This document shows positions 6,865 to 58,348 of a stretch of DNA of 64,000 nt, in pieces (the first letter of the stretch is position 1; each line of letters starts with the position of its first letter). The DNA comes from Moniliella sp. 'wahieum'. Its lineage: Eukaryota. A program made the translations under genes and the position numbers. The notes under the pieces are model-generated. The model saw only the letters and a list, made by a program, of their open reading frames with translations, made no database searches and was not told the origin of the DNA. Where the stretch lies: contig RSEE01000069.1 of NCBI GenBank assembly GCA_003971905.1, forward strand, positions 186,001 through 250,000, read 5' to 3'.

Positions 6865-6908
6865 GTACTGAGGTACTGAGGTACTGAGGTACTGAGGTAC
6901 TGAGGTAC
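6865..6908. repeat. (GTACTGAG) x5.5 tandem repeat
   Basis: Perfect 8-bp unit read directly. Confidence 0.95.
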
Positions 6909-12500: not shown

Positions 12501-12710
12501 TGATCGATCGGATCGATCATGGACATCACGATGCCTGGCTCCCCCGGGCTCCCCCGTAATTGGATCTTGAGACAGTATACGATGCATACGATGGCGCACA
12601 CGTTTTGACCAAGTTTTGTGTGACATGTGACATGTGACCTCCAAAAATATATAGCACACAGTCCCTAGTCCCGCAAAATATAAGAACGGAGACAGTAGGA
12701 AGGGGCGGGG

Positions 12711-15074: not shown

Positions 15075-16625
15075 CGAGGTGTTTTCTGAAAACTCCGTAT
15101 GCGGGGTGGACAATAGATCACCGATCACACACGACATGTTGCCAGCTTTTCTCCCAAGCAGACACTCCCTGATCGGCAAGCCAACTCACAGGGAAGTGCC
15201 TCCCTCAGGCCTCGCTCCCCCAAGCAGCACAGCAGTGGGCTCAAAAGCGCAAGTAACCAGGAGGACACTCAGCTGGACCAAAGACATATAGTAATGACGA
15301 GAGAAAATGATGAGACCTCTGGAGTCATCGTGATGGTCGTCGAGGGTGATGCAATGGCGCACCCTTGTGGTGGCGGTGGTCTAAGCCAACCAGCAACGCC
15401 CACAGGAACATCACGCAGCGAGTTGCCACCAGGGGCTAAGCTGCGGAACAGGAAAACAGTAGGGAGATATAAAACAACGGAACTCCTAGGCCTGAGGAGG
15501 AACTGAAGGGACGTTGGCCAAAGCACGAGCCACCCGGTGGCTCAGCAGAGAATGAGATTCCACGCCAGAGGCGCGTACTCTGATAAAACTACTTTGATAG
15601 AAAGTCTCTTTATCCCCCCCTGTATGGAAGCGGCCTTAGCATGCAAACTCCTGTTGTGCTTTGCGTTATTCTTTTTAGCATCGTAGCGTCAATATCAGGG
15701 GCCTTAGGCCTTAGCATGCACTGCCTGCCAGCCACAGCGCAGGGTTTGGCGGGGATAGCGATCGCTTGCTAAGGGCTGCCGATGATCGAGATGAACTCCA
15801 CGTGTGGGGGTTGCGAGGTAACCCTTGAGAGAGGTATGTATAACGAGCTATGGACAGATGTTGCTTGTCGCAGTTTGTCTCCCTTTCCTCTCCCGCCTTT
15901 TGCATTCAATTGCCCCCGAGGCCGGACCGAGGGGCCTGAGGAGAGGCTGGCATCTCCTTGACTTCGTGCTCTCTCGTCTGATCAGTCGCTCTGTCCAAGT
16001 CGCGGCCTTCCATTTGTTCCTACTGTTGTTGTGTGGGGAGATGTGCGATTGCATCATAGTATAGCAGTAGCCAAGCCACTCGCATACGCGCGCGCCATTT
16101 GCAGCCCCTTTCTCGACTTTGGCATGTCCTGTCCAGGCCTCCTTCTCTTCCCTCTCTTTCGCGGATATAATTGAATCAATACCAGCTGCTTGGGTGACTC
16201 GCCAAAGACGAGGCGTTTCTACTATACGGCTCTGTCCGTCGGCGTCGTGTCTTCCCCGTCGTCGCCTTGGTTCGCGGCGTCTCTCTCATGCATGATGCAT
16301 GATGCAGATGCAGGGCATATGGCATCATGGATCCATCACCGGGTGACAGTGATCTTGCCGTTCCGCTCAGAGGCGGAAGTTTGGTCCTACGTACCACTTT
16401 TTTTTTTTTGGCGTAGCCATGCTAAAGTGGGTGGTTCTGTACTTGGCCCCCCGAGCGCGGAGTCCATCCAAGTGGGGTTTGTTTTGCCTGGCTTGGCAGT
16501 TCGGCCTCGGCCGCTAAATCTGGAACGCCGATGGGCAGATCTGATTTTCTGCATCCATCAAACCGCTTGCCCCTTTCTTAATACCCCCCCCTCCTCCCCT
16601 CTTTCTTTCGCAGACCAGCACCACC

Positions 16626-17859
16626 ATGTCTAGCGAATCGACATACACCGGCAGCGCTGCACACCTCGACAAGCTCTCGAGCGCTCTGCTTTCTTCGAGC
16701 GAGCCACTCGATGCTCGCTTCCGTGCTCTCTTTACGCTCAAAGGCCTGGCAGCCAAGCGTGACGATTTGGTCAAGCCCGTAATTGACATTATCAGCAAAG
16801 GCTTTTCGGACGACAGTGCACTTCTCAAGCACGAACTCGCTTACGTCCTTGGCCAGCTAGCGACGAGCGCGCTGTGCCCATCCTGGAGGACTTGGTGGAG
16901 CGGATGGAAGCGCAGCCCCCCATTGTGCGTCACGAGGCCGCAGAGGGTCTGGGTGCCATTTCCTCCGCCTCCAACGCCTTGCCTCTCCTCCGCCGCCACG
17001 CGAAGACCCCAAGGAGGACATTCACGTTCGCCAAACATGCGAGCTTGCGATCGCCAAGATTGAGTGGGACCATACCGAGGAGGGTGCGCGCCTGGTTAAG
17101 GAGAAGGCAGAGAAGACCAAGCTGGCCGCTCGCGGACAAGGGGAGGAACACGAGGCATTTGCGCCCATCGACCCAGCCCCTGCTTTTGTGAAGGAGGGCA
17201 GCTCGTCCATGCGGCCCCTCGCCCCGGAGGCATACGACGTACCGGCCCTCCGGGCGACGTTGACGACGAGCAGACTTGTTCGCTCGGTACCGTGCCATGT
17301 TTTCGCTTCGCAACGCGGTACATTCGTGTCTGCGTGCGAGCGAAGCATTGGCAGGGCGAGACGCTGCGCAGGCGGAGGCGCTGGAGAAAAAGGCGGACGA
17401 CGCCGTCTTGGCCCTTGCCGCCGGATTGGCTCGGCCAGCGCCAGGCAAGGAAAGGCCTGGTGGGGCACTGTTCCGCCACGAGATCTGCTTCGTCTTTGGC
17501 GAGCTGTGCCACAAAGCCTCGATCCCGGCCATGGTGGACGTGTTGAACGACGGGGAGGAGAACGAGATGGTACGGCATGAGGCGGCCGAAGCGCTCGGGG
17601 GATTGCCGAGAAGCTGTGGACGAAAACCCGTCCGAGTTGGATGCCGAGAACAGCGAGGAGGGGTGGGACATGTGCTTGCCACCCTCCGGCGCTGGGCTCA
17701 GGACATGGGTGCCCCCCGTGTGGTGCGTGAAAGCTGTGTGGTGGCGCTGGACGAAATCAAGTGTGAGTGTGGTGGGGATGCGTGTGTGTGGGGCGCGTGC
17801 TGACGTCCTTTTGTGTGGCAGACAACAACGACCCATCGCAGTTTCAGCCGATGGAGTAA
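16626..17859 (+). CDS. LIA1: Deoxyhypusine hydroxylase (HEAT-repeat, eIF5A hypusination)
   Basis: RFRALFTLK and four HE motifs: [56 protein letters not shown] follows. Intron 17763-17821 gives the C-terminus [12 protein letters not shown]. Confidence 0.95.
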
Positions 17860-18340
17860 CCTATCTGGGAAGCTGTATGAGGCTGGTTCTTTTCCAAAAC
17901 GATGCTATGCTCGATCCATCAAAGATAGGCTCTTTGGGCTGAGGGCGAGAACGAGGAGAAGCGAGTGGGGGTGTGGGGAGGGCGGTATATAGCACTCTGT
18001 TCACCGGAGCTTTCGCCAGGCCAACTGTGCAAAACGTTCGCGATGGAGTAAAGCTTGAAGTGAACAGTGAACATTGAACATTGAATCGATTTGCTTTGAA
18101 AGTTGCAGGCTGCGACAGGATCTGGCCCGATACACGCTAAGCGCTAAACCTTCAATTTCATGCACTGATCGATGCAATATATGCCTCCGCTCGCCTTTCA
18201 CGTGGCGTGGGGTAGCAAAGCCACCAGAGCTGCCTCCTGCCCTCGTCGGATCATCCCGTCGCCCTCAGCGCCCCCGCCACCACCCCGGCCGCTCCCTTGC
18301 CTAGCACCCCCACCCCGCCCATGGCGTAGCATCCCTGGCC

Positions 18341-26781: not shown

Positions 26782-27130
26782 ATTGGATTATGTTGTTATT
26801 CCCCCTACTACTGCCCCAGCATGGACTGATGTGATGATTGCAGCTATAAACAAAGCTTTTTGGGTTCTTTTTTGCTCTTCTTCGATCGTCATGTGAATCG
26901 ATCTCTTAGGATATCCGTGGAGGAGTACGAGAATGATCGACAATGTTATTGTTACGCGTTAACCGTCAATGATGCAAAGTGTAACATGTACAACAGCAGC
27001 TAACACTTTCTAACTGAGAAAGTGGTCGTCTCCCTCTATCCACAATGATTATAATGACGAAGAATTAAGGATTAACCGGCTTGAGGCTGAAACCTGTGAG
27101 AGGCGCGCTGTCGCGGGACTGTGCTTGAGT

Positions 27131-27198
27131 CTTGAAGCTTGAAGCTTGAAGCTTGAAGTTTGAAGCTTGAAGCTTGAAGCTTGAAGTTTGAAGCTTGA
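27131..27198. repeat. (CTTGAAG)n heptamer tandem, ~9 copies
   Basis: cttgaagcttgaagcttgaagcttgaagtttgaag... Confidence 0.95.
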
Positions 27199-28717
27199 CC
27201 ACAGAATGTGAGTACTGATCGATTATAGGCATACTATGGCTGCGCATTCTTTCCTATATCCCGTCCCTGAAGAACTGTAAAAGAGACGAAGCCATACATT
27301 ACTCAGTCAATGTATCAAGCGACCGAAAGCCGATCAAGAAAAATCAAGCGCTGCCCTGAATGCCATGTTTTTGCCTATACCACTGTTGGTAGTGCCTTAC
27401 AATCAGTCGTCGAAGATCATGATCTCCATGTTATCAATCAGCGGTGAATCACCGTTTCCTGCCGTACGGCCGGTGGTATTCCAGTTCAGCGATTTCATTG
27501 GTTGTATGGCGTTCTTAGTTTGTTGGGCTGCATGCAATGACCAGTATGTATCGCCATCACCACAACCATAATTAACTTCGTCCTCGGGATCGCGTAACGA
27601 GTACCTAGTAATGGGCACAGTGTGGCATGAAACATATGGCATGCCCCTCCCCGCGCGCAGAGAAGGAGTTACATATGCGGCTATACTCATCAGTACTCAG
27701 TACTCAGTGAGTAATACTCAGTACTCACTTCTATATAATACGTTACTTCTATATAGGTGAGTCCCTGACGCAGACGGGGGAGGAGGATTCATGCGCTCAA
27801 TATGTGCATCACATGCACATATTTCTCTTGGCCGGCACATGTTATCATGTCATCATGTCATTGATGTCATCCAGACTGATGCACATGATGATCGACCTGA
27901 TCACAATGTAATTATGCGCGCCCGTAACGCGTAACGAGGAATCTCCTCTTGATCTCGGGCGCCGTCGACAACAGTACTATATGAGCCATGATGCCTGTGA
28001 GGCCTGAGGCGAAACAAGGGCATGCATGGCACAGTAGAGATTCGTTTTCTTTTTTCTGTATACTAGTGAGTACGTTTAGTACTTATACTGTGGGACCATT
28101 AGAAACACGACTATGCTAGTATTAGCCAACACAAAGGGGAAATATATGGAAAGGAACTAACGAACATTGAATTCGGAGAAACATGCCACTGTAGCTGGTC
28201 AGGCAGAACCGACGGAGAGGGTCCGGCCTGGGATTTCCCGGACCCTCAGCTCAGTGATCAGTACTCAGTGTACTCAGTGGTCATTTCGGGAGAAAGGGTC
28301 AATTGACCCTTGCATGGCTTTTAACCTCTGTGGGCGCTGAAGCTTGACGCTCGAGGCCAGAATACTTGGATACATCCTGAAGGAGTCTCACTTGAAATCT
28401 CACCTGCAACCAATTATGATGATGAACATTGAACGTTGAACACGGTCATCTCATTATTCCCCAAAAGTCCCTCTCGAACTTGGATGGCCGCCACTTTGTT
28501 ATACGTAAACTATCTCGATAACCCTCAAGACAAGCCACAACTTATTCCCTTAGACCTCGCAGGCCTGAGCGCCTGAACAGGGGCCGTCTCGGGACCAGAG
28601 GGTCATGCATAATGCCAAATCACGATCGCCGGGGCCGTCGGGTATAATTATATGGCCACGACGCTGTCGCAGTGAAGAGAAAAGAACCGCTTTGAATCCA
28701 TATCTTTAACAGAGCGT

Positions 28718-31700
28718 AAGGCTGGACAGGGGAACGCTACGTCTAAACCGAACCGTTCATGGGGTTACTTGGAAGCGCCACCAAGGTTAAGGAACTAGAG
28801 GGATCGCCAGGATATATCAGGACCCTCCGGTGGTCGTATAACAACTATAAGAGGGTTTTGAACTGGAGCAGAACATAGTCTTCAATTTCACCACCATGCT
28901 CTTCGCTCTACTCGTCCCTCGTTCCTACATCTTGTTACCCTTTCATGATTAGCCCTCTCTTCTGCTACATTATAGAGGCTGCACGTCGGAAGAAGAGAGA
29001 TTGCTCTGTATGCCCACAGCGAAACGGAGATGTGCAACGACTTCGTTAGTAGTCTTCCTCTGATCGACTCTCTATCGATGCATCATTCAATTATCCGGTT
29101 GAAGCGTATTACAAATTCAAAAACACAACTCACACATTTTGCACACAATTAGTTGATGTACTACCGAGGTATAATTGTGACATGTCATGTTGGGGATGGC
29201 CAGGAGGAGAAAAGGAGCCAGACGCTGCGAAAGAGCGCTAGAGGTTTATAGGGGACGTGAAAAGATTAGTGGGGGTGTACCATGTAAGCCTTTGGATGGG
29301 CAATCGGAGCTACACAACGCGGGATATATGTGCTGCTTTTGCATATAGATGGTTGTAGTGAAGCAGAACTTTAGAGGCGTGTAAAAAAGGCAATAAGGGA
29401 GAAAAGGGTACGATTATATCACTCCTATGATAGTCTACATAGAGTTAGCGCCGGTGTATTTGGTCTTCAAGAGGCCACATATAGAAAAAACGCGCTGTCT
29501 CTTCCGTCGTGACGTTAGTACAGCTTTCAGGAACAGTAGTGCAGTGTATAGACTCTCGATGTGTTGGGGAAAAGAATGTGAATGGGCCTATAATATCAAT
29601 GGAAAAAGCACCAGATTAATTAGAATCGAATACAAGTGTCACAGTCGAGGCTAAGGCGAGACCAGAATCGGGACTAGGCCAAGGGGTGTAGCAATTGTTC
29701 GTGGGGAATGAGCAAGAGCAGGGACATGTGCAAATGGAGGAAACAGGGGAGGAGCGAGACGCTTGAGACGAAGAAATTGGAAATATGAGCGAGATCAGCG
29801 AAACTATGACAATAAAAGTTTGTCAAGACTGAGCACTGATACTGGAGTATAGATGAGCGTGCAGCCATGGCTCTGGATGCAAACCAATGAGCACAGCTGC
29901 AACAAGTCTGGTCTTAGGATATAACAGAGAGTGCGGGTTTTCGATGGTGGACAGCGGACGGAAGGGAGAGGGATTGTTGATGTCCGGATATCTTCGGCTG
30001 ACGCGGCAATAATGACGAATATTCATCAGGCCTCGAGCACGATCGTAACGGACACCTTTAATGATCCTGGATACCCAGGGATGTTCGAAGTGCAGTCATG
30101 CAGTGGTAGAGAGAGAAGACAGGAGCTGATGGGTTGAACCCAGGATGAGGATCAAACGGAGAAGGAAAAGAAGGAGAAGAAGGAGAAGAAGGAAGAGTGC
30201 CACAAACTACAGGTTGGGGATACTGGCGTAGTGCCCGGATGCGTAAGAGGGTTAGGGTGACCTCGGAGGTGGCTGGCCCTTAGGACCCTAGTTAACCACC
30301 TCTCGTCTCCACTCGGGCACGCACTACACACTTTATGTAAAGTGGAGAGACTTTATGAAGAGGGAGTGTGTTCAAAAGACATCCAGACCCAACTTCAGCT
30401 TCATGACGCTGAAGCATTATAAGGAGGGCCATATTAGTTTGGTCGATCTCGCTCCCATTTCGAAATTCTTCGTCCCGAGCGTCTCACTCTTTAGTTCTTC
30501 AGCTTCACATCGTGCCCTATGCTCTTGCTTCTTCCCCGCCAATGATTGCTACATTCCTAACTTAGTCTCGATTCTGGCCTCCCTCACCGGTCACCTTCAT
30601 AGCCCTGCGACTGTGACAATATTACGCATCTTTCACATGGAAGTGTGGTGGACCCGTAGCCACTAGCGAAAGCATACACCACCTCTCTGTTGGTTCCCAC
30701 TGCATCCCCACATCCACCACAGGACTCTCAATGCGCGAGACGTTGGTTCGGCCAGTCGGAAGCAAAGGTGGGGGGCAGCGAACATACGAGCATTGAAGTG
30801 GGCCAATTAAGAGTTGATTCGCTATAGAAATTTGATCTTCTCGTTGCTATACACTTCTCTCTCTTTGGTACAATTGGGAGGGATGGATAGAGGGCCGTAG
30901 TGTGATCCGTATTCCCTCACTCTACCATTAGTTGTGCTCCACAGCCCACCGTTCCCTTCTTACCACTGTGCACAGCGTGCTATACGCTTGTTTTCAGTCA
31001 CATGCATCCCATTCCTCCCTGCGTCCCGTCGTTACTTTCCGTCGTTATTGGTAAATATTGCACATCCCCTTGCTTCCCTGGAAGTCGACGTGAGGCAAGA
31101 ACCCAAGTGGAGCAGCGAGCAACAGGTGATGTGCGGGGGAGAAAACCAACTTGAGTCAACTTTCCCCCAGACTCCCCTCCCACCCTCGCTGGGAGTGTAC
31201 AAAAGCAACGGATGTGGGTATGTGTGAAGAACGGGCGGGCAAAACAATCCATGTTACCAGTGTTGAACGTGGATGTGATGGAAGTTGATGAGCGCGATGA
31301 AATGATCGTTCCCAAGGTTTGATGCTAAGCCGATATGGATTGGATGAGACTTGCCCCTCTGCGACAAAGGTCTTCGTTATAATCCTGGCCTCATGCCTCA
31401 TGGTTGTTTCTTTTTGTGAAGTCAACAGCCAACGTTCAAAATGTTTTCATGAAATGCTCTGCGGCTAATATACATTAAAAGTTTTTGCGCATTGGAAGGA
31501 GTTGGCTACTAAGTCTCAGTGGAAATGGTTCCTCGCTCGGATGTCAACCACGTTCCTCCGTGTCCATACGCGCTTCCTAGGGTACGGGACCGGATGGCAT
31601 GAGCCGGAGGGTCCTGATATCCTGGCGATCCCCCTGGTTCCTTGACCCTGGTGGCGCCCCTAAGTAACCCCCGCAAGATGAACGGTTAGGTTTAGACGTA

Positions 31701-31722
31701 GCGTTCCCCCTGTCCCAGCCTT
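28718..31722. mobile_element. Degenerate foldback / TIR-type element relic (~3 kb)
   Basis: Outer inverted arms 28718-28830 and 31604-31722. Inner inverted arms ~29636-29810 and ~30434-30620. No transposase recognised. Confidence 0.6.
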
Positions 31723-33420
31723 CTTAAGTCTGCCAATGAAATGGAAGTCATTAAGGGAACCGCTTTCGGATCGGTTTCCATTTGACGTGGCACCTCTGTT
31801 GGGTTGAACGCGTTGAACACTAATAACAGCTTACAGAAGATTACACTCGGCCTTACAAGCGTCGAAAGCTAAGCTTTTCTAGCTTCTGCTATAAGCTTTC
31901 AGCTTCTATACTTTGGATGCTATACTAAACACTACCTTGTTTAACGTTGATCGGCCTTTCTTGGTAACACACCTATGTCTTGACCCTGTTGGTTCGCTAC
32001 ATCACGCATCGTATACAACACCTGCTATTGTCTCTTCTTAAATCATCGATTATCGACTGAATCAGGAAGGGTTTACTTGAACGGATTGCCGGATGCGGTA
32101 TTTAAGCTTCTAGTTACCGGTAACCGGCAACCCCGGCCGTAATCAGGTAGTTACTCGTTTTTAGTAGTTACTAGTTACAGGCCATAGTCTTCGTTGTAAG
32201 AGTATCTTGTTTTCTTCTATGCACGATTCACACGGTTGTTACTGGTTAATATAAAGTAGACCTAGTGGGCTGCATATATAGTTGAGAGGAGCGTATTAGT
32301 GGATGGCCAGTTCAGCGAGTCTGACGTCCAGGCCTGAGCATTCGGCCTCTCAGGCCTTCTTGCCTTTCTCAGTTTAGGGAGTTGAGTGGTTACGCTAGTT
32401 GCAGAAACACGTACGATGGGGGAAGGGGGTATGTAGAATGAGATCTGAGAGAGGATTGCATTATGGGGAGAGCGACAACAGAAGAATGTTGTAACAAAAA
32501 AAAGCTATATACACCCCTCCCCCGTATAAGCGACTATTAGTAAGATTGGAAAATACAAGCACTTGTAGAGGAGAGAGAGAAGACGCTCACGAGGGAAAGC
32601 ATGCCTACCTATTGCTATCATGATAAAAGGGGCCGTCTCTTCCGATCGACGTCGAAGATATCGAGAAGGGAATGGCCTGGACAGGCAGGTGCCATAATGG
32701 GGTACAGTGTCATATACATGCCTCTCGTCATGCACGTCATGCGTGATGCGTAACTCCATGGCCGCCTTTTTGTCTGTGGCGTGCAGACGTTAGAAGGTCT
32801 GATCGCGGTTCCGACGGGCATATAGTTCGACCTTTGCGGGGCCTTGTGTTTCCACGGGCCATATCCCTTTGCGGTGTTGAACGTGTTGAACGCTGAATGT
32901 ACGTTGAACGTTGTACGTCTTCGAAGCTTGAAGCTTGGAGTGAGTAAGTACGTACATGGTAAGGATACGAGTTGCCACGGATGTAGGCTCAGCGCTCAGG
33001 CTGAGCGCTCATCCTAGCATGTATTACTTTTGATCAGTGAACAGGGATGGTCATCGGTCATCTCTGCGTAGCGTAGCGTATTTGTAGTGTGTAGTGGCAC
33101 GTCACGCGTCAATACTCCAGGCAATTGATGATGTATGATGCATGATAATCTACTCGTTCTGGAAGCTCTCTGGGGGTGGCGTTTGATTGCGGTGGTGGTG
33201 AGTGCTGGGGAGGTGCAGGCCAAGCGCAGAACTGAGATGGGATGGTCGACGGTCGATAGGACGGGAGGCATGTGCGTGTGCCAGTTAGGAATGTGTGCCT
33301 GATGGCATAACGGAAAAGGGCGGTGCGTTTTCTTGTATAAAAGAGGTGGGCGGCCGGAAGAGGAGGGCACAGAGGACTCGCGGTGCGTTATACATTAAGC
33401 CGTCTCCTGCCGACCTGAGG

Positions 33421-33468
33421 CTTGAAGGCTTGAAGCTTGAAGCTTGAAGCTTGAAGCTTGAAGCTTGA
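33421..33468. repeat. (CTTGAAG)n heptamer tandem, ~6 copies
   Basis: Same unit and orientation as the array at 27131. Confidence 0.95.
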
Positions 33469-35117
33469 GCGGCCGCTGGATCGAGGTGCTGTGGAGGGGG
33501 CTGCGCCTGGCCCCGGTGGCGAGGCAAAAGCTACCGTGATGTGTGACGTAACCTTTGACATGTGACATCTGAGATCTGAGATCTGACATGGGACATGGGA
33601 CATGGAAGCTGTGAGCGGCATTTGAATTCCATGCATGAGCATGGTCATGAGCGCCATGAGCGCATGAGCGCTGAGCCTCAGCCCTTCGGCCGGACGAAGC
33701 TTAAGCAGCGGAAGCAGGAAGCTTGAATCTCTGAATCTTCAAAGCGCCAGGCACTCCGCCTGAGGCTCGTACTTGGCAGTGCTTTGGCACTGAGCCTCAG
33801 CGCACACGCCGAGTGCGCAACTGAACTGAACGTTCAGTACGTTCACGACGCGGCATGCCATCGCCCATCCAGGAAGCTTTGGCGCCTCCCAAGTAGGACA
33901 TCTGCCGCTGTACGTATGGTGTGTCGCACGTGCCGGCTGACGTTTGTTTGTTTAGTGGCTGAGCGCCACCCCCATCGACCCCATCGTCCATCCATCCCAC
34001 ACCACACCTGAGCCTCAGGCTGAGCGCAGCTTCAAGCAGAAGCACAGGTACTGAGTACTCCGTCCAGCGGCCGAGCACGATGTGCTGGACGCAAGGGCAG
34101 GGCATGGCCCTGCAGGGCCTTGGCAGGGCAGCCCAACTGATATTGAATTTGACGCTGCACCAGCGCTATCGATTATCGGCCACCGGCCACCACATGATGG
34201 CGACGGCGGGTGCCCTGGTGCCCAGTACGCACAGTACTACACCAGCGTGCGCCAGTGGCGGCGGGCTGGTGGCCACCCGGTGGCGGTGTTCCAGCAGTGA
34301 CGCGTGACGCATGATGGGTGACTAGTGATGCATGATGTAATGCATGATGGTGCTCAGGTGGCCGGTGGGGCCGCACCAGCAGGCACTGGGTGGCGAGGCG
34401 GGGAAGCGCAGTAGGCGCCGGGGGCGGTGGGCGAAATGTGAGATCTGAGAAGATGTAAACAGGTCCGAGACAGCTCAGGGCCCATCGCCGGCAGGCGATC
34501 GACACAGAAAACCGTCGGATGATCGATGAGGGGCACGTTGGGCTGCTGTGGGGCTGATGCACTGATGGGGCTGATGCGCTGATGAGGCTGATGGGTCAGG
34601 CGCTTCGTACATACTCATCAACACACCCTCTCGCACTGTAGTCTCGCCCACCCCAGCCAGTCTGCACCCGCAGTCCAGACCTGTTGCGCACTGCACCATC
34701 TGTACCCTGCTTCTCGACCAGACGACGACATCTCACACATTTGGTGTGCAGCATTCGCCATGCGAGACAGCTCAGCGGTGAGCCCACCCATTTGCTCACC
34801 CTTCACCCTCTCAACCCAATGGCCAACGTTCGACGCATCAACGTACGGTTCAACGACTCTTCTCTCTCCATCAAGCTCAAGCTTCGTCAACGCAACACCA
34901 GCCCCGAAACCTTCTCTATTTCCTTGCCCCCCCCCCCCCCCACCCACTTCTCCCATCAGATCTCAGAGCGCGACACCAGGCAAAGGCGCGCTGGTTGGGC
35001 CTATCCCTCCGGTATACATCAGGTGAGGCGGTCGAGCGGTGGGCCACCTGGTCGTTCCGATGCACCAAAGCATGTGTAGACCCTGCGGCCTGAAGAGTCT
35101 GCCTCAAGCTCCAAACC

Positions 35118-37672
35118 TGTTGACTGTGATCCTCTGGCTCCCAGTCGGTAGACCAGGTTCGCCTCGGTTCCATCGGCTTCCACGCTGACGTCCCTGCGTG
35201 TCACTGTCCCTGTGCCCTGCACTCTCTCCTGTGTGACTCACTGTCCCTGTGCCTAGTCCAGCCTCCTATATAGATGCCTCGTACCCAGACCCAACTCTGG
35301 CTCCAATCCATCACCTTCTCCTCATCCTTCTGCCCGTCCGGCTCCCTAGGCCAACAGAGTTACAATCTGATCCCCCCGGAAGGGGAGCGCTCTTCAAGCA
35401 AGCCCACCCCCAAGCCTACAAGCCCAAGCTAAGCCGCCAAGCCCACAAGACACACCCGTCCTCCCGCCCAACAACACCACCGCCACAATCGGCACCTTAC
35501 CGCCACAATCGGCATACTACCGCCACAATCGGCATACTACCGCCACAATCGGCACACTCGTCCCCACAGATGGGGCAATGATTTTTAGGGACAACACACG
35601 ACGGAACAAAACGTGTAGGGTATCGTCAACGAGACGAAATTCCTCCAACGACAAAACGGCGCAGGCGAATCGCAGAAAGCGGGGGTGGCTGCTCATCAAG
35701 TGCCCCACCCACGGCTACACGCCCCGGATTGCCAATTCATCCGGGGCACCTGGGGAAAGGATGGGGGGGGGTGGTCACCCAACTTCTTCCACTCCTCTTT
35801 TTCACACAACAAAGAGAACCCAAACAGATCAAGACGGTTGACGCATAGCGCCCGTTCATTTCCCATGCCCAATGGACCCCACTGGCACCAGGCATGGAAC
35901 CAAACAACTACCAAACGCATCCAATTTTGATGCCAAACGACCTTGGACCGCATTTACTCCAAGTTTCCAATTTTCTTTCACTACACCTATAACTGGTGCT
36001 TTTTACTTTTGCCCACCAAATCGCTTCGGGGCGCAACCCCTACTACTTTTACTTCTAAGACTTCTACAAGCATCTGGCGGTCGCACAATACACCAACCAC
36101 AAGCGCTCGGCTCGTTCAGGTGTCATCCTGGACAGCGGGGGTGTAGGCCAGTCGTGTGGCCATGCACAACTCCAGGCCATTCGTCCCGGTTGCCACTCAA
36201 GTCCTCCCCTCTCTACATCCACTGGCAGGAGCTCATCCCACAACCGATGTCTCCGGGTTCCCTGGCCAGCGGGGGTGTTGACTGTGATCCTCTGGCTCCC
36301 AGTCGGTAGACCAGGTTCGCCTCGGTTCCATCGGCTTCCACGCTGACGTCCCTGCGTGTCACTGTCCCTGTGCCCTGCACTCTCTCCTGTGTGACTCACT
36401 GTCCCTGTGCCTAGTCCAGCCTCCTATATAGATGCCTCTGTACCCAGACCCAACTCTGGCTCCAATCCATCACCTTCTCCTCATCCTTCTGCCCGTCCGG
36501 CTCCCTAGGCCAACAGAGCTACAATCTGATCCCCCCGGAAGGGGAGCGCTCTTCAAGCAAGCCCACCCCCAAGCCTACAAGCCCAAGCTAAGCCGCCAAG
36601 CCCACAAGACACACCCCGTCCTCCCCCCAACAACACCACCGCCACAATCGGCACCTTACCGCCACAATCGGCATACTACCGCCACAATCGGCATACTACC
36701 GCCCAATCGGCACACTCGTCCCCCACAGATGGGGCAATGATTTTTAGGGACAACACACGACGGAACAAAACGTGTCGGGTATCGTCAACGAGACGAAATT
36801 CCTCCAACGACAAAACGGCGCAGGCGAATCGCAGAAAGCGGGGGTGGCTGCTCATCAAGTGCCCCACCCACGGCTACACGCCCGGATTGCCAATTCATCC
36901 GGGGCACCTGGGGAAAGGATGGGGGGGGTGGTCACCCAAACTTCTTCCACTCCTCTTTTCAACAACAAAGAGAACCCAAACAGATCAAGACGGTTGACGC
37001 ATAGCGCCCGTTCATTTCCCATGCCCAATGGACCCCACTGGCACCAGGCATGCGGAACCAAACAACTACCAAACGCATCCAATTTTGATGCCAAACGACC
37101 TTGGACCGCATTTACTCCAAGTTTCCAATTTTCTTTCACTACACCTATAACTGGTGCTTTTTACTTTTGCCCACCAAATCGCTTCGGGGCGCAACCCCTA
37201 CTACTTTTACTTCTAAGACTTCTACAAGCATCTGGCGGTCGCACAATACACCAACCACAAGCGCTCGGCTCGTTCAGGTGTCATCCTGGACAGCGGGGGT
37301 GTAGGCCAGTCGTGTGGCCATGCACAACTCCAGGCCATTCGTCCCGGTTGCCACTCAAGTCCTCCCCTCTCTACATCCACTGGCAGGAGCTCATCCCACA
37401 ACCGATGTCTCCGGGTTCCCTGGCCAGCGGGGTGTTGACTGTGATCCTCTGGCTCCCAGTCGGTAGACCAGGTTCGCCTCGGTTCCATCGGCTTCCACGC
37501 TGACGTCCCTGCGTGTCACTGTCCCTGTGCCCTGCACTCTCTCCTGTGTGACTCACTGTCCCTGTGCCTAGTCCAGCCTCCTATATAGATGCCTCTGTAC
37601 CCAGACCCAACTCTGGCTCCAATCCATCACCTTCTCCTCATCCTTCTGCCCGTCCGGCTCCCTAGGCCAACA
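35118..37672 (+). mobile_element. Non-autonomous LTR retroelement (TRIM-like) as tandem LTR-I-LTR-I-LTR
   Basis: Three near-identical 239-240 bp LTRs (35118-35356, 36276-36515, 37433-37672), each TGTTG...CAACA with an internal TATATA. Two ~918 bp internal regions end in a G-run before the next LTR. 5-bp TSD AAACC at 35113-35117 and 37673-37677. Confidence 0.92.
35479..35558. repeat. 20-bp minisatellite (ACCGCCACAATCGGCATACT) x4 inside the retroelement; second copy ~36638-36717
   Basis: Read directly in both internal regions. Confidence 0.9.
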
Positions 37673-39171
37673 AAACCCTTCAAGCTTTGAACTGCTGGAG
37701 CTGCCGGCAGGCCTGGTACACAAGGTGGATTAATTGGATTGGGGAAGCAACGTGCAAGTGTATAGTTGCGTACTGTGTTTGTGGCCAAGTGGCCGAAAGC
37801 TCCGCGTGAGCGTGTGGCGTGAAGCTTCAAGCCTAAGATCTAACTATCATAGGGCAAAAGCTTAAAACAGGAGGTATAACCGGATAACCGGTAATCGCAG
37901 TAACTGGCGGATGGTGACGCGTGACGCGTGACGACGCGACGACGCACACTGCAATGCAGTCGGTGTGTGGCGGGCTGGGACTGCGAGATCTGAGACTGAG
38001 TACTAAAAGCCAATGATTAATGATTAATGACTCAGATTCATTATGCCGAAAGCAGTAGCCGGTGGAGTGGGAGGCAGAACAGGGCAGGGCACGCGAACAA
38101 GGCATTAGGCCTAAGGCCTTAGGTGAGAAGAGGTGTTAGGCAACTGGTCCTGGCTAGATGAAACGCTCCAGGCCTAGTAGCAGCGCTCAGCATCTGGGCG
38201 CTCAGCCTACTAAGCACGTCAAAAGAAGGAAGGTGCGCAAGAGTGTTTTGGGGAGGGGGCTGGGCGCAGACATGAAAGGTGGCGAAGCGTGCTCAGCTGG
38301 GCCTCAGCACTGAGACTCAGTAACTCGGTGCTGAGTTATATATAAGTTAGGATATGCTGTGACATGGGAGTTCACTGAGTGCGGACCGTGGCGGGTGAGG
38401 GAGGTGGTACCGAGGGTACTGGCCCAGCCACTAATAAGCTGCCATAATGCATAATCCATAGGCCTTGGGCGTGCTAGGCCTTTTACGCCTTAGGCCTGAG
38501 CCTCAGGGAGGCACAGGTGTTGCTAAGCTGATGCGCGGATGGCTGATGCACCGGTGGGCGACAGACTGCTCCAGAAGGCCATGGGGCGCAACGCGGCGGT
38601 GGGCACTGGGCGCACACAATGCATCACACACATGGGATACTGTGGCTACGTAGAGCCTCGTGCTACGTATGTGTCCACTGTGTTGACGGTACGTTGCCTG
38701 GCAACCACAGGTCTGCTGCGGACAGGGCATAAAGCAGGCACCAGGGCAGCGGCCACGCATGGCCGCCCGCGGCGTCCCAAGTTCCCCGATTCCAGCACCC
38801 ACAACCCACAACCCCAGGAGAAGACGGACGGGCGGCGGAGGCTAACCTGGCGCCGCGCAATGGCACCTCGCACCTGGCAACTGCTCCCAGCAGCCAGCAA
38901 GCGCAGGCGGCTATATAGGTGCGGCTGCCAGCACCTCGGCCTTTTCTCTACCCCACCCCCTCCGTCTCTCCGTTTCTTCTTCTCTGCGGTTGCCCGGCAC
39001 TTCTTCTGCTCACGCGGTGGCGCTCGGCCTGATATCCATCCATACCCTCCCCCTCCCTCCTTGCCCCGGCCGTCCCACCCACACCCCATACCTGCAGCAC
39101 GACCTCCTCCCTTCCCCTTTTCTTTGTTTCCTTGATTTCTCTCTTCCTTCCCTCCCCTTCTTTCTTTCGCC

Positions 39172-40885
39172 ATGACGACCACCGCCCGTTTTTCCGGCCC
39201 CACCGCCTTTGCGCCTGTTGGGTATGGTACCATCTCTATCTCCATCCCCCTCCTCTCCGTTGCGCCTTTTGTGCACACTCTCACCCCGGCTTGTTTTTGC
39301 CAGCTGTCTTCCCCTGGCACCCACGCCCCCCCACGAACGCTGTGACGACGCTTCGTCAGGCGCGGCAAGCCCCTCGTCGGACGGTATGCAAAGCGAACTC
39401 ACTCAGCCCTCGCGCCCCCCTCACCCCCCGATACGACTCACAAGCCCTCGCGCTCTTCTCGCGGCGAGGGCGACGAATGGGCCCCGCGCCCTCCCAATGC
39501 TTGGATCCTCTACCGCAGCGATAAGAGCCAGGAGCTCAAGCGCCGCAACCTCTCCAACCCCCAAGTCGCCTCCATGAGCAGCCGGCAGCGCCAGGCTGAA
39601 ATGTCGCGCGAGATCTCGGTGCTGTGGAAGAACGAGTCCAAGACCGTCAAGGACCTGTATGCGCGCCGCGCCGAAAAAGAACGGGCAGATCATCGCCAGC
39701 GTTACCCCGTATGTCAACCCCTCTCCTCCCCCTCGCCGAGCCTCCTACTACCGTTTTTTTGCCCCGTTTCCTCACTGTGTATGCTGACCGTCTTCTCTCC
39801 CCTGCTGCGCAGAACTACAAGTATCGCCCCAAGCGCCGGACAGCCGAAGCGAGCAGGAGTATGTATGCGCTGCGGCGTCACAGCTCCTTTGATCCTCTCC
39901 AGCTCTCAATTGCGAGAGAGAAGGGGCCGATGAGCGCAGGCATGTTTGACTCGCGCGCTTCCTTGGCTGGCTACACCTCTACCACCCCGCATACGCCCCC
40001 CTCCATCGCTGCTGCACTTGGCAGCGCACGCGAGCCACCAGACCGGGCCGTACTATGTTCCTTCCTCCGGTAGGGTCCTCCTACACCGTCGCGAGTGTAC
40101 CGGCTGGCCCACACATCGCTTCCACGGTCCAACTGCACCGTTCCACCGCATCTCCACTTTCTTCGGCGCACTTGTTCCCCTCCGTGCCTCTTACCTATGC
40201 ACCCGACTTGGCGCTTTCGGCCCCACCTACGACGGGCCCAGGCTCCAGCGTCGTTCCTACTTTTCCACGGCCGGTTTCCCAACCCGGCCTATCCTCCCGC
40301 CCCTTTTCTTTGGCTACGCCACAGTCGCATGAATTTGACGTGACCTCCACCCCGCTGCCCCTCCTGGGCAAGCCCCGCTTGTCCTCCACCGACTCGTCCA
40401 TATCGGATCTGGCGCCGTACACGTCAAGCAAGCTGGACCCCCCTTTTCTTCTCCCGGTCTCCTCTCAGCCCCTGACGGCGGCGGCACCGTGCACGTTGCC
40501 TCTCAACACGCCGCACCTGGATGCGCCTCTGTCCTTGCTGGATCCATGGGGTAGCCTGGACCCCGTTGACCCCAAACCCACCTTCCGCCCTAGCTTTACG
40601 TCGTCGCACCCCCATCCTCATCCTAATCCTAATCCTCATCCTCATTCCCATTCTCATTCCCATTCTTATTCTCACCACCCCCACCACCCGATCCAACCGA
40701 ATGGGAAGGCCAATCGCCCCTCTCGGCTCCGCACACGCTACCCTCTACTACCTCACTACCTCTCTTCCCGGCCGGCTCGTCTTGTCGGATCCTGCGGACC
40801 AAGACGGGCCCCCAGTCTTTTGTTCTCGTTCTTCTTCCCCTCTCACCACGTCTACTTCTCTCCTGTTCGCCCCGCCGCCGCGTGA
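39172..40885 (+). CDS. Sequence-specific HMG-box transcription factor (MATA_HMG/ROX1-like class)
   Basis: PRPPNAWILYRSDK..QAEMSREISVLWKNESKTVKDLYARRAEKERADHRQRYP, intron 39709-39812, then NYKYRPKRR. TATATA at ~38912. His/Pro-rich C-terminus. The start is tentative. Confidence 0.9.
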
Positions 40886-41967
40886 GCTGTGCTTCTGCGT
40901 GGCTTGGTTTTCTCCTGCTTTTTTGCTTTTTTGCTCTCCACACTTGTCTCGCTTTTGTCTTTTTTTTTGCTCGTTCACGACCCCCCTCTCTTCTATGCTC
41001 GCATCTTGTTGGCCCAGGTTAATTTGTCTCTCCGTTCCACGGTCGTGCCGATCGATACACAGTTCACCGTTCACCGTCCACCCTCCCCCTATGCCACATG
41101 CGCCCGTCTAATAATGCTGCTGTCAAGTCGCCGGAATAATGTATTCGCTCTGCCCTTCCTTGGGCTTTCCATACATGATGCGTCTTCTCTGACCATCTCA
41201 TAATATCTCGCACTATAGTCCCTCTCTCCTTCCCTCCCTTCCTCTCTCTCATGGAGTGCCTAGCCCAGATCGCCGAACCGGCGCACGAGGTGGGAGAAGA
41301 ATCGTTTCCCACTCGTCCTCAATTGCTGACCGTGAGGTCCCTGTGTCGCCCTCCACATGGGCTGCCAGGTTCGGGGTGCACGGTGCGCCACGGTATTATG
41401 GGACCATATCGCTCTGGCGCGGCCTGTTGCAACGGCCTGGGGGGGGCGCGTGGACCCGTGCTAACCTACTGCGGCGCGCCTCGAATCAACCGTATCGCAT
41501 AAGGATCACCTCAGGCCTCAACTGATACCACTTCCAGAACATCAGACCAGTGGCGCGTCCGTTCGCTCAGCCAGCTACCCCAGTGCGCAGAAAATGATCA
41601 GTGTGAATTGCCCCCCCCCCCCGCCCCCCCCGGGCACCGATTCACCGCATTCCCCGACCAAAACGGGACCTGCTTCCCCCCTGACTAATGCCTGCTATAT
41701 ACGAATCAGCATAACCACGGCCGGTACCTATTCCTCCCCGCCCTCACCTCTTCCCTCCTGCATACGATGCCTACATGACCTTTCCCCTGTTCTATCTATC
41801 CACCGCTTCTCTCGACTCGGCCCCCACACGCTCTCACAACGTTCACGCGATCCGTCATTACAACACTACTGCCTTGCTCTAGCTCCAGAGCAGAACAAGC
41901 ACGCCGTCGCAGCCGTCGCCGTCCAAATGCCACAGCATGGGCACGGGACCGGCAACGGCCCGAGGCT

Positions 41968-44217
41968 CTAGGCACAGGGAAGGGACATGGCGCCTCGGTC
42001 CCGGCCCGATCCGGCCTCACCGTCGACGTGTACCCGTCGTGGGCGTCGCCTGGCCCTGGCCGGACAGGCTGGAAGCTGATGCGCGTGGGCCCAAGGGGTG
42101 GTGGAGCAGTGCCGAGGCTGGTGCCGGGGCTGGGGTAGCCGTGGTCCTGCGTGGCTGCACCGACGCGCGCAGGGCGAGCGAGGAGAATGGCGAAGAGTAC
42201 GCGATTGGGTAAAGAACAGTCTCAGTTCCCGCGCACCCACATTCTCAATCGAATACGCATTGCCGCGCGGGACGAGGAACATGCCGCCCGGCGCAATGGT
42301 AAATGCGCTGCGGCCGACTTTGTTAAGGGCGACGCCTTGGATTACCACAAACACCTGTTGGATCCCGTGTTAGTCAGTTGATTGGCCTGTCCCCTGCCCA
42401 ACTCAAGGGGGAATTCGAAGGGGCACGTACATAGTGTTGTCCTTGCTAGACTTGGTCGGTTTGCTCCCGCCGACCGGAACGGACAGCACGCCGGCGGCCA
42501 ACGCATCGTCGGCACTCAACAGCTTTTCAAACCCATACGTCTGGCCTTCGAACGTACGTGGGTTCATCTGCATCGACGTGCACGCAATCGTTCGTTCCAC
42601 TTCTTGGTTCAGATCGGGATCCCACACCACCTGAACCCGCTCCGTCGCTTCGTCCATCCCATCCTCCACCGCCACATTGTCCGCTGTCGGGTCCAGCTCA
42701 ACAAACCCATCGTCTTCGTCGGCAGAAAGCACCTCCTGGTCCTCCCCGTTCTGCTTCGCCTTTCCATTCGCCGCGCTGCCGATCCCCCAGTCCGTCGGAC
42801 CGCAGCTCTGGCTTTCTTGCCCTTGTGGAAGCGCAGCCCGGAAAAGGTCCCTTCGTCCTCCGCCCGATTGACACGGTACACTCGCCGCAACGTCGGACCC
42901 GGCACGCCTGCCGTCTCCCCCTTTCCCAAACTCGGACGACCGTACTCGGCTCGCTCGCCACGCCACCATTCCAGCGGCTTGATCCGATGGCGCGTTCCGC
43001 GTCGTAGCCCGCCATCGGCTTCGGCCTCCTGCCCTTCCCTAGCCAGTTGCACCCTCTCCTCTTCCAACCGGGCGCTCGGGTCGGCGGGACGAGCACGGGG
43101 TGCCTTGCCGGTCTTACCGCCCTTGGCTGCTCCACGGCGGCGCGGAACAGGAGCAGGAGCAGGCACATCTTCTCGCCTCACTGCCCTCACCAGCATCGGC
43201 ATCAGTGTCGGCATCAGCTTGCGGTAGCTCGTCCGGGAGCTCGGGGGAGAGCTCAGGGGAAGGCACGGGATGCTTGCGCGGTCGGCCACGCGGCTTGGCC
43301 TTGGGCTTCGGAGGCACCGCCGTCGGGGACGGAGCATGGCTTGGTTGGGTTGCTTTTGCACGCCCACGCGCAGGCGCCGTCTTGGTTGTCGGTTTGGTCT
43401 TGGACCGCTTGGCCGGCGCAGCATTCACTGCTTGTCCTCGGCGTTTCCGCGGAGGGGGGGACGCATCCTCCTCATCTTGCTCCTCCTGCTCTTCCTCATA
43501 TTGTTCGTGTTCGTGTTCTTGCTCTTGCTGTTCCACTTCTTTCCACGTTGCACGGCGAAGAGATGCGGGTTGGACCGGACTGCGCGTAGCCGCCGGAGCG
43601 CGTTTGGCCGCCCGAGGCTGTGGACGCGTGCGAGGCCGGGACGAGGAGGCCGGCTGTTGTGAAGCGGGGCCAAGGCCGAAGCCAGCTCTTCATCATCATC
43701 ATCGTCGTCGTCGTCGTCCCCTGGCTCAGCCTCGGCCATCCAACTGTAATTGCCGGGCTGGGGCTGACGGCGCGTACGCGTACGCGTCGACGCGGCGGGA
43801 CGCACGGAGGTGAAGAGGGAAACTGGCTGATCGATCGCGGGGTTGCGGCGGCGCTGGTCCGAGCGACGGGCCGAACGGGGGGGGATCGCTTCCTCTTCCT
43901 CCTCGGAAAGCAAGGGGGACAGCGCGTCGTTGGCAGTGAACACGCGTCTCCTCTTCCTCCACCACCTCCTCCTCCACAGCAGGGGGGAGGCACGGTGTTG
44001 GTGGCGGCGGCGGTGCTCGATGCTGCGCTCGACGGCGGCGCTGGGGGTCGCTGGGCGGGGCAGTGTCCATGTCGGTGGTGCTGCTGGGGTTGGCGGCGCG
44101 GGTGCGGAAGAGGGACTCCATCTGGGCGCGCATGGCGGAGGGGTCGGCGGGGATGGCGTCGGGGCGCATGCCCGTGCGGCTGCCGACGCCGCGCTCGTAG
44201 AAGCGGTGGGTGGCCAT
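41968..44217 (-). CDS. MIF2: Inner kinetochore protein CENP-C/Mif2
   Basis: CENP-C motif GLRRGTRHRIKPLEWWRGERAEY. C-terminal cupin (FEKLL..AAGVL..KPTKSSKDNTM, FVVIQG..GGMFLVPRGNAYSIEN..LFFTQ). N-terminal GVGSRTG. AT-hook-like PRGRPRK. Ends approximate. Confidence 0.9.
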
Positions 44218-51078: not shown

Positions 51079-51079
51079 G

Positions 51080-51134
<55 letters not shown>

Positions 51135-51137
51135 CAG
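51079..51137. repeat. (GCCAGA) x9 microsatellite
   Basis: Perfect hexamer array. Confidence 0.95.
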
Positions 51138-53243: not shown

Positions 53244-55343
53244 GTTGCGGGTGGGCGAGGGGGCGGGTGGTTTGGCGTCTGGTGGAGAGCGGGGGTACGC
53301 GGGCGGGGGCGAGCGGGGGGCATGGGAGGTGGGTGGATGGACGCGGAAGTGACGACGGTGGCGGTGGCGGTGGCTAGAGGACGGCGCGGCTGGTGGACAT
53401 GGAGAGGGCTGGAGGGGGGGCGGGGGGGCTGGTGGTGCACGGGGCGGGTGTTGGGTGGAGATGGATGGGATGAGATCGAGCGGCGGCGGATGGGATTCAG
53501 GCAGAGATCAGATCCAGAGAGGCTCAGCGCAAGCACATGTGCTGAATGCTGGATGCGCTGAATGCGCTCCGCACCCAGCCGCAGCCATGCTGAAGCCAAC
53601 CCCGCCAGCCGATTGCGGGGCGGCGTCCCGCAGCGTGCGGCACGGGCAGTCCCCTGCGCCGTGTTGTCCCCCGCATCCACGCCGCAGCGCGTGAGTTTCC
53701 CTCCCCCGCCGCCCACTGTGACGTGTGATGAGTGACGTGTGACGCGTGAAACGCCCGCACCAGTGCTCGGCTGGTGCCAGGGACCAGGTCCGGGACAGGG
53801 CACATGGCCGCACTCTCAGGACTGGCCGCTCGGAAATCCGCGTGCGTGCGGGTGGTATTGCGTGCAGCTGCGTGCATCTGCGTGCGCCGGCCGAACATGC
53901 AAACAGCTGCCCACCAAATGCATCATCATCATGCATCATCGACATCATCGATAATTAATCATTGGCCAATCGACAACCACATCCAAGATCGAATCCCACC
54001 CCTCCCCGCCGCCCACGCCCACGTTGCCAACGCCCTACCACCGCCTCCCCACTCCTCGCGATGGCATGCCGAGCATCTTTGACGCCGCCCCCACACTGTC
54101 ACTCACGCTTATCCACTCAGTACTCACACTTATCCACTCACATTCTCACAGGTGCCAGTGCTAGTGATCTCGATCATGATCAACAGTAGTGACTAGTGCT
54201 AGTGACTATGGCTGCCCTCGTCCCTATCTCAGATCTCATGCCCTTAATTTGTCCTTCCTCCACGCTCCACCGGCCACCCTTCAAGCTTCACTCTTTGCCC
54301 TCCGGGCCGCACAGTCGCAACGGCGTCCATCTACATCCACACTGCCTACAGCCATAGTGGTCACCGTCACCAGCCACCTTTTCGAAAAGACTGTGTATCG
54401 AGTATCCTTCATTTTGCATCATTTTCCGATTCCTCCCCCCCCACTGCCCAGCCTCACCGTGAGACTCACCACTCCGCCTCGCTGTTGCTCGGTGTGATTA
54501 ATGAATCGATTACACTCAAGCTCGCGCCCTCCCGCGCAGCGATATCGTCTTCCCGCCGCGTCACGCGTCACCATCCTCGTATGCCGACCACAGCGACCAC
54601 GGTCAGCTACCGCTTCAACCGACCGCCAATGATCGATGATGGATGAGGCCGGTGAGGACAAACCCCTGCTCCACCTTCTTTCACAAAGAGTAATGACGTC
54701 AATGGCGGCATAGTCTTCGAGAATGTCGACGACGGGCACATGAGCACAGCCATCGCGATGATACACGTAACATGCAACACCTGTGGGTAGGCGCGTGACG
54801 CGTGATCAATGATCGATGGTCTCGATCAATGTCAGATCGATGTAAAAAAAGGTAGTGGACTTGGGTCGACGGCGTGGTCATATAACTGCTCGGACGCAGT
54901 CTCGCAAGAGCCGCAGAAGAGACATGGTACAGAACCAGCCAGTCTACCACATCATCGTGGCCACTCCATACCTGTCATACCTGTTGCGCTCCATCAGTTC
55001 TGTGTCCTGCATCCATCTTCCATTGCATATACTTGGTATACTCTGCTGCTAATAGTAAAATGTCTTCGTCAAAGATGATGCTTCTGTACGCGGTAATAGC
55101 GCTTGTGTCACGGTACCGCTTGTCATCTCGATCTCACCAAACGGGCGTCGCAAAAACGGGGGAGGGAATGGAAAGGGAGAACAGGAGTAGGGGACCGACA
55201 GAAGGGCGAGGGGGATCGCTGATATATGCCCTTGCCAAGGCCTCCTCCCTATGCAGGCAACGAAATTTTTCGTCCAAGAAAGAAGAGAGAAGAAAGGAAA
55301 GCGTGCGCACTATACGAAATGCGAGGGGGGCACTTGGCGCCCA

Positions 55344-58251: not shown

Positions 58252-58348
58252 TGGTCAATATGAGGCTTGAACTCATGACCTTGGCATCACCAACACTTTT
58301 CAAAGAAACATATTAGTACCACGCTCTGACCAACTGAGCTAATCGACC
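58252..58348 (-). tRNA. tRNA-Ile(AAT) with 23-nt intron (58288-58310)
   Basis: Acceptor GGTCGAT/ATTGACC+A, D-arm GCTC..GAGC, anticodon stem TGGTA/TGCCA with loop CT-AAT-A^A, T-arm ATGAG-TTCAAGC-CTCAT. Confidence 0.95.

Follow-up and report, generated by a model that had tools for sequence, protein, structure and literature searches.

Directly repeated TNA triplets around flank-mirroring palindromes in the non-coding DNA of a smut-related fungus, possibly the scars of a transposon

This study concerns a short sequence unit that recurs in a 64,000-nucleotide stretch of DNA from Moniliella sp. 'wahieum' (contig RSEE01000069.1, positions 186,001 to 250,000; hereafter the window), in which a T-N-A triplet is directly repeated around a 4-base palindrome that mirrors the two bases flanking the unit on one side. 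Each unit is a net insertion of 7 bases at a pre-existing TNA. Based on the structure of the units, we propose, at what we judge to be an even chance, that a cut-and-paste element whose 7-bp target duplication has TNA at its centre left them behind as scars. The original prediction for this DNA had described tandem repeats of a self-complementary hexamer plus one spacer base, but missed both the templating of the palindromic core by its flank and the +7 insertion at a pre-existing TNA.

A direct TNA repeat around a flank-mirroring core

Exact period-7 runs of at least two copies number 41 in the window, and in 22 of them the unit is a palindromic hexamer plus one base. All 22 hexamers (10 different ones) start with A and end with T, with none in the other three end classes, and the spacer base is G in 11 runs, C in 4, T in 4 and A in 3. 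A random primitive heptamer has any palindromic-hexamer rotation with a chance of 10.4% and an A..T rotation with a chance of 2.7%, and the 22 A..T runs compare with about 1.1 expected among the 41. This bears out the predicted architecture of an A....T palindrome plus one base; all 22 coordinates listed for it hold the named hexamer, most of them with a second copy 7 nt away. Searched as TNA, palindromic tetramer and TNA with the same N, the pattern has 77 matches in 62 clusters. Local second-order Markov simulations, run in three sets, gave 2.07, 1.67 and 1.4 matches, and the remaining 15 outer-letter classes stay near background (2-12 observed, 1.6-8.4 expected). The enrichment over a Markov background that the prediction had proposed to look for genome-wide is present in the window, with the classes not ended by A and T at background. 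Among the 16 possible palindromic tetramers 13 are in use as cores, and 52 of the 62 clusters are single events without an array. The prediction also stated that neither a single transcription-factor motif nor ordinary slippage explains the repeats, which stands, as 13 cores follow one rule and control DNA shows no enrichment of palindromic heptamers.

This control consisted of unrelated metagenome DNA around arrays of three AAGCTTG units (at least 120 such loci), of which 674.5 kb from 119 loci were analysed with the seed arrays excluded. It contains 187 exact period-7 runs, 173 non-palindromic and 14 palindromic, so that the palindrome bias is absent (14 of 187, compared with 10.4% by chance), and its A..T palindromic runs are 3 of the 187, all in two fungal-looking contigs. 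The density of non-palindromic period-7 runs is similar in the window (19 in 64 kb) and in the control (173 in 674.5 kb), and therefore the excess in the window lies entirely in the A..T class. Arrays of (TGAAGCT)3 are common in metagenome contigs, occurring at these 120 or more loci, and the wider TNA-palindrome grammar is absent from most of them. Therefore, that array alone is not diagnostic; it has other origins too, or it outlasts the other units.

The core of the unit is templated by its surroundings. In 48 of the 62 clusters the outer half of the core equals the two bases outside the cluster on one side, whereas 2000 flank permutations gave 8.1 such clusters on average and at most 21, and 11 of the 14 misses are only one mismatch off. 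The matches divide into 22 on the left only (L-type, core mirroring the left flank), 19 on the right only (R-type, core mirroring the right flank) and 6 on both sides, which sum to 47 rather than 48 because mixed clusters were scored on their first core only. The balance between left and right and the few matches on both sides indicate that the palindrome was made by the event and that the site was not palindromic beforehand. In an unbiased scan for a 5-mer, 2 nt mirroring its far end and an identical 5-mer, the neighbouring triplet was TNA in 42 of 53 and in 40 of 57 cases. The triplet is repeated directly rather than inverted, with the same N in 77 matches, a complementary N in 11 and another N in 12, and most units are therefore not perfect palindromes. 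Together, the flank-templated core and the direct TNA repeat make each unit a +7 insertion, in which xyTNAcd becomes xyTNA-y'x'xy-TNAcd or, in mirror form, xyTNA-cdd'c'-TNAcd. In the 47 reconstructed targets the only fixed bases are T-N-A, symmetrically placed and with a mild G/C preference around them, as expected of a dimeric transposase. The length of the unit fits a 7-bp duplication with a 2-nt exchange, and equally 5 + 2.

These results divide the mechanisms that had been suggested for the repeats. Hairpin-opening repair is favoured, since a mirrored dinucleotide beside a direct duplication is the P-nucleotide signature, namely that of a hairpin-sealed end nicked 2 nt from its tip, whereas snap-back synthesis does not agree with a TNA that is repeated directly. 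Nothing in these results suggests a structural chromatin signal. Selection for foldable DNA is not supported either, given the scarcity of perfect palindromes and the folding of the interval 33550-33610, which matches that of shuffled sequence (z -0.21); two short arrays likewise show no excess of folding. The arrays at 33416-33468 and 27123-27198 have DNA fold z values of -4.28 and -6.25 relative to shuffles, and foldability is a by-product of the insertion rule.

Several minor forms accompany the main one. A 6-base form (TNA, 3-base odd palindrome, TNA) has 27 matches compared with 6.2 expected, at least 4 of the 27 lying inside simple TCA/TGA trinucleotide runs, and 8-base forms have 10 and 7 matches compared with about 2 expected. 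Non-palindromic TNA-N4-TNA is in excess as well (56, about 27 expected), and these copies look like decayed or hybrid units. Complementary-N units (11, 1.85 expected) are perfect 10-nt palindromes such as TTAGGCCTAA, found at 38105-38121, 32114-32123 and 6614-6623, and may reflect the opening of hairpins at a distance of 5 nt from their tip. Period-8 arrays, which consist of parts of the unit with one extra base, lie at 6865-6908 (GTAC+TGAG, 5.5 copies), 27838-27871 (CATG+TCAT, 4.1 copies) and 34549-34593 (GCTGATGC variants), and may be a minor product of the same process that was later amplified.

None of the 62 clusters falls inside the Pfam-supported open reading frames (ORFs) of the window (10,075 bp; P = 2.4e-5). 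A 7-base insertion shifts the frame and carries TGA or TAA on one strand, and therefore survives only in non-coding DNA. Selection for stops in all frames, TNA being a stop on one strand, was considered and set aside as unneeded, since the stops follow automatically from the rule.

The same rule occurs in a second lineage. In L038, part of a 37.6-kb metagenome contig, TNA-palindrome-TNA has 11 matches where 0.92 would be expected, and the remaining 15 outer-letter classes do not rise above background (16, 17.4 expected). The seed array accounts for three of the 11, and three AGCT units that stand singly are paralogous copies of one site. The helicase of L038 is 85% identical to that of Lactarius psammicola and 57-62% to those of Russula, which places the contig in a mushroom-forming lineage far from the fungus of the window. 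The latter is a smut relative (Ustilaginomycotina), judging from its V-ATPase A fragment, which shares 90% identity with that of Tilletiaria anomala and 84% with those of Tilletia, Ustilago and Pseudozyma. No metagenome locus shares 90 bp or more with the window. An SF1 helicase gene that contains introns, with AAA_11/AAA_12 domains and database relatives named 'RNA helicase', is present at positions 1-20024 of L038 in at least four tandem paralogues, as units of 5.4-6.3 kb that are 82-97% identical. One spacer site reads gCTGAGAacc in copy 3, CTGAGATCTGAGt in copy 2 and CTGAGATCTGAGATCTGAGA in copy 1, which are 0, +7 and +14 by the R-type rule. At another site, two copies have AGTAAC where the third has GGTAACCGGTAACCGGTAAC, longer by 14 bases and a further G. 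Over three paralogues, gain rather than loss is the parsimonious reading of this +7 series.

Origin of the units and rival explanations

In the reading that we favour, the element would insert at NN-TNA-NN through a 7-bp staggered cut, by which xyTNAcd would be duplicated. On excision, the transposase would seal both flanks as hairpins, in the manner of hAT and RAG-type enzymes, and each hairpin would be nicked 2 nt from its tip to leave a 4-nt self-complementary 3′ overhang, cd.d'c' on the left and y'x'.xy on the right. End joining would then retain one overhang and trim the other back to duplex. The end product that is observed is a directly repeated TNA around a 4-base palindrome mirroring one flank, with a net gain of 7. 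As each scar would leave another TNA with identical flanks at a distance of 7 nt, repeat visits with some slippage could build in-register arrays, which fits the in-phase chains of the window. Such a 7-bp hairpin model yields both observed products and no other of length +7. That hAT enzymes form flank hairpins is established, and the usual P length is 2 nt, as in the units described here. Transposons with 7-bp target site duplications (TSDs) are recorded from basidiomycetes, namely hAT7 in Pucciniales and Kyakuja in Agaricomycotina (PMC12730594). In Cryptococcus deneoformans, 46 new T1 insertions were mapped in 20 sequenced passaged lines, at about 800 generations according to the legend of Fig. 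2, in a report whose accessible text does not state the target duplication or footprint of T1 (PMC9942834); transposition in basidiomycete yeasts is frequent enough for the scar model.

A number of results weigh against an excision origin. Searches of the window found no pair of terminal inverted repeats (TIRs) bounded by a 3-, 5- or 7-bp TNA duplication and returned mostly the heptamer arrays themselves, together with four 3-bp TIR candidates (28430-31950, 13099-16932, 32996-33680 and 53936-54828) that were not examined further. No transposase domain of Pfam was present in the 143 window ORFs scanned, a set made up of 34 of the 68 ORFs with a length of 70 aa or more in 26-38.6 kb and, over the entire window, 109 of the 171 that reach 130 aa or more. 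The predicted +11 products, with both overhangs kept, and +3 products are not enriched, and neither are plain 7-bp duplications centred on TNA (7 of the 19 non-palindromic runs contain TNA, the chance level) or plain 5-bp duplications (3-4). Canonical hAT targets are nTnnnnAn, 8 bp long, with T and A one base from the ends and not two. The footprint spectrum expected of excision does not appear, as one product dominates with its 77 matches, and excisions in rice are heterogeneous, with 8 of 94 leaving a clean duplication and a mean of 18 bp deleted (PMC4423477). For hAT7 and Kyakuja the target consensus is given only in a figure, and the supplement consists of consensus sequences only (PMC12730594). 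In L038, the polarity of gain versus loss depends on parsimony across three paralogues, and 7-bp indels number only 2 per pairwise comparison, only some of them of the TNA-mirror kind.

The same scar logic could operate with a 5-bp duplication, if a Transib/RAG-like or other element duplicated xyTNA and only the xy flank kept 2 P nucleotides. Transib and RAG duplicate 5 bp and form flank hairpins that gain 2 P nucleotides, and taken literally the product is a forward copy of 5 bases and a mirrored copy of 2. However, such an element would need an asymmetric target, with TNA always at the element-adjoining end and on one side only, as well as P nucleotides on one flank only; its alternative product xyTNA+TN'+xyTNA has 3 matches, 2 of them also canonical, plain 5-bp duplications are rare (3-4), and we regard it as quite unlikely. 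A host process without any transposon, in which a site-specific nuclease or domesticated transposase cuts TNA sites with a stagger and seals the ends as hairpins, and repair then adds the 7 bases, would agree with the lack of an element in the window, with an outcome unusually uniform relative to known transposon footprints and with the very high density of 62 sites in 64 kb. It is nevertheless unlikely in our view, since a direct duplication of 5-7 bp needs stagger fill-in or integration, a single hairpin break giving mirrored bases only, and since one rule in two distant basidiomycete lineages is easier explained by a shared mobile element family; to our knowledge there is no host enzyme of that kind. 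Footprints of Tc4/Tc5-like (Tc1/mariner) elements would combine a duplication of TNA alone with 2 nt left from each inverted end, and so give TNA, a palindromic tetramer and TNA. Judging from the footprints of Tc1 and Sleeping Beauty, staggered cuts inside the inverted ends would produce a 4-nt palindrome and lengthen the site by 7. For Tc4, the target is CTNAG and the duplicated part TNA (PMC11071193). The filler would, however, be constant per family, whereas the window has 13 cores, with 48 of 62 clusters mirroring the local flank; this would require a dozen families, every one with a preference for targets that complement its own tips, which makes this origin highly improbable.

Ordinary replication slippage, biased to hairpin-forming units, is helped by the long AAGCTTG arrays, which fold well single-stranded (z -4.3 and -6.3), and some array growth must be slippage, as in three exact TNA-less GACATGG units at 33585-33605. 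As an origin it meets the 52 of 62 clusters that are single events with no repeat to slip on, the restriction of the enrichment to A..T palindromes (22, none in the other three end classes), control DNA without palindrome bias (14 of 187, 10.4% by chance) and a core templated by its flank; slippage is therefore largely refuted as the origin, for which we give it hardly any credence, and is left with a secondary part in lengthening arrays. Selected cis-regulatory or chromatin elements, with the arrays kept through protein binding, would be in keeping with the position of the units in non-coding DNA near genes, many of them in a gene-free stretch upstream of an HMG-box gene, and some units resemble what we take to be bZIP-type half sites (TGAC...). 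Interchangeability of the 13 cores and flank templating point instead to a mutational origin, and decay has reached many copies (56 non-palindromic TNA-N4-TNA where about 27 are expected), which leaves selection very unlikely as the explanation. Individual scars may have been co-opted all the same. Two other candidates were tried and rejected: in a replication template-switch, the primer end has no pairing partner on return to the template after copying y'x', and in a 3-bp TSD with P nucleotides, the P bases would derive from the TNA itself and the predicted product has only 3 matches.

Distribution of the units and genomic context

Overall, the 62 clusters amount to about one per kb of the window, and they concentrate at 6-7, 11-12.6, 27-28.4, 32-35, 37.8-38.5 and 53.7-54.8 kb. 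The occurrence in every long intergenic region that the prediction had stated is not confirmed. The densest stretch, 32-36 kb, has 14 clusters between 32168 and 34965, starting at 32168, 32439, 32989, 33102, 33136, 33431 (5 units), 33556, 33570 (2 units), 33665, 34298, 34319 (2 units, cores CTAG and TGCA), 34439, 34520 and 34956. Among these is the chain at 33556-33605, TT TGA-CATG-TGA-CATC-TGA-GATC-TGA-GATC-TGA-CATG-GGA-CATG-GGA-CATG-G, which reads as the original prediction had written it, with the unit changing within a kept 7-nt phase. It contains two canonical clusters, one R-type at 33556 (core CATG, right flank CA) and one L-type at 33570 (two units, core GATC, left flank TC), with one hybrid, non-palindromic unit CATC between them. 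Events at TNA copies 7 nt apart that mirror different flanks would account for such an in-phase change of core. At 33585-33605 three exact GACATGG units follow, which lack TNA and indicate that slippage acts as well; to arrive at the GGA units, a T>G change is needed in addition to slippage.

Next to this chain, TGA-GCGC units spaced 9, 8 and 7 nt apart occupy 33646-33680 (CATGAGCGC CATGAGCGC ATGAGCGC TGAGC), the last of which, at 33665, is canonical and R-type. The AAGCTT+G array at 33416-33468 consists of five exact TGA-AGCT units at 33431-33468 (L-type, left flank CT) preceded by two decayed ones. A longer AAGCTT+G array at 27123-27198 (10.9 copies by TRF) has three exact units each at 27133 and 27161 and one at 27189, with AGTT variants between them, and belongs to 13 clusters in 26952-28439, which start at 26952, 27133, 27161, 27189, 27209, 27690 (2 units), 27718, 27925, 27998, 28076, 28258, 28338 and 28430.

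Towards the start of the window, seven clusters lie in 6004-7207 (starts 6004, 6114, 6647, 6675, 6725, 6949 and 7198; cores GGCC, TGCA, CTAG and CCGG), with the period-8 variant at 6865-6908 (GTACTGAG, 5.5 copies) among them, and eight in 11278-12637 (11278, 11405 with 2 units, 11604, 11840, 12164, 12204, 12369 and 12621 with 2 units). Three single units follow in 15704-18147, at 15704 (GGCC), 16293 (TGCA, both flanks matching) and 18138 (GCGC), and one TCA-CCGG-TCA (R-type) stands at 30584-30593. Five clusters fall in 37834-38454, at 37834, 37885, 37915 (2 units, CGCG), 38014 (2 units, TTAA) and 38445, where the complementary-N class is represented by the alternating-N unit TTA-GGCC-TAA-GGCC-TTA at 38105-38121. 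L-type single units TCA-GGCC-TCA are found at 41511-41520 and 57974-57983, and nine single units in 53740-54805 start at 53740, 53929, 54117, 54229, 54281, 54495, 54561, 54630 and 54796.

About 12 kb at 26800-38500, where 33 of the 62 clusters lie, are gene-free, of lower G+C (0.47-0.52) and without a Pfam match. This stretch is upstream of an ORF with an HMG box (39346-39930, E 1.9e-9), and may be a very long regulatory region of that transcription-factor gene. Within it, a tandem repeat of about 1158 bp at 35114-37672 has 2.3 copies of 97-100% identity, with internal 20-bp (ACACTACCGCCACAATCGGC, 4.2 copies) and 18-bp repeats; its ORFs of up to 251 aa have no Pfam match, and copy-specific 7-bp indels are absent between its copies, which is uninformative on +7 events. 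The recognisable genes of the window are RPL6, RPL35A, ALG9-like, the HMG-box gene, CENP-C, V-ATPase A, ELP3, CK2-beta and PDI, and the ORF at 41971-42369 on the minus strand carries the C-terminal cupin domain of CENP-C/Mif2 (E 1.1e-13). An Rfam scan of the window found tRNA only, in the form of a 97-nt gene at 58252-58348 on the minus strand that covers the whole 71-position model (52.5 bits) and probably contains an intron. A perfect hexamer array, GCCAGA in 9.8 copies, lies at 51079-51137 in a region rich in long ORFs, and C runs of 19 and 21 lie at 34927 and 41611.

Comparison with known systems

Excision footprints and P nucleotides are textbook knowledge. Full-text literature searches, with most subscription journals outside their coverage, found no published description of the present pattern, and several features seem not to be in print, namely a single stereotyped +7 product tied strictly to T-N-A, a frequency of about one such product per kb of non-coding DNA, the in-phase heptamer arrays and the occurrence in two distant basidiomycete lineages. 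More tentatively, and with more doubt than conviction, we suggest that one transposon family, or a domesticated enzyme derived from it, could be a genome-wide writer in basidiomycetes, entering and leaving NN-TNA-NN so frequently and being repaired so uniformly that a strict 7-bp grammar results, that most heptamer repeats of promoters arise de novo, and that the process is common to Tilletiaria-like smut relatives and Lactarius-like mushrooms. If so, it would be a new, rule-based origin of microsatellite-like DNA. The scar reading, if it holds, would supply a concrete mechanism by which short tandem repeats are born without slippage as the starting point. It would also mean that a single enzyme-and-repair pathway has left a countable mutational signature over the whole non-coding genome, recording transposon traffic even where the element is gone, and that promoters receive a steady supply of new palindromic sites and length variation. 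Hairpin opening and end joining would be unusually uniform in these fungi, which is genetically testable. The rule itself (TNA, flank-mirroring 4-base palindrome, TNA) is simple enough for scanning any genome.

The units resemble the footprints of hAT elements (Ac/Ds, Tam3, Hermes) and the P nucleotides of V(D)J coding joints in that a direct duplication surrounds a short inverted copy of the flank, and in a net gain close to the length of the TSD. Unlike those varied footprints, one product dominates here, at about one per kb of non-coding DNA, repeat visits would build tandem arrays, and the units are known here without a linked element; their target is NN-TNA-NN with a 7-bp duplication, in contrast to the 8-bp nTnnnnAn of hAT. 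The hAT7 and Kyakuja elements share with the scar model the 7-bp target duplication and basidiomycete hosts, but they are not known from Ustilaginomycotina, and the accessible text of their description lacks target consensus and footprints (PMC12730594). No hAT or KDZ transposase was found among the 143 window ORFs scanned.

With Tc4/Tc5 the units have in common the duplicated T-N-A, and with Tc1 and Sleeping Beauty footprints the succession of TSD, short palindromic filler and TSD; in those elements, however, the filler comes from the element ends and is constant, whereas here it mirrors the local flank and varies by site. Slippage micro- and minisatellites are likewise short tandem arrays in non-coding DNA, with a copy number that varies among paralogues, as in L038. 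Unlike them, the units described here obey a rule that is absent from the control DNA, are mostly single events and follow that rule strictly in their sequence.

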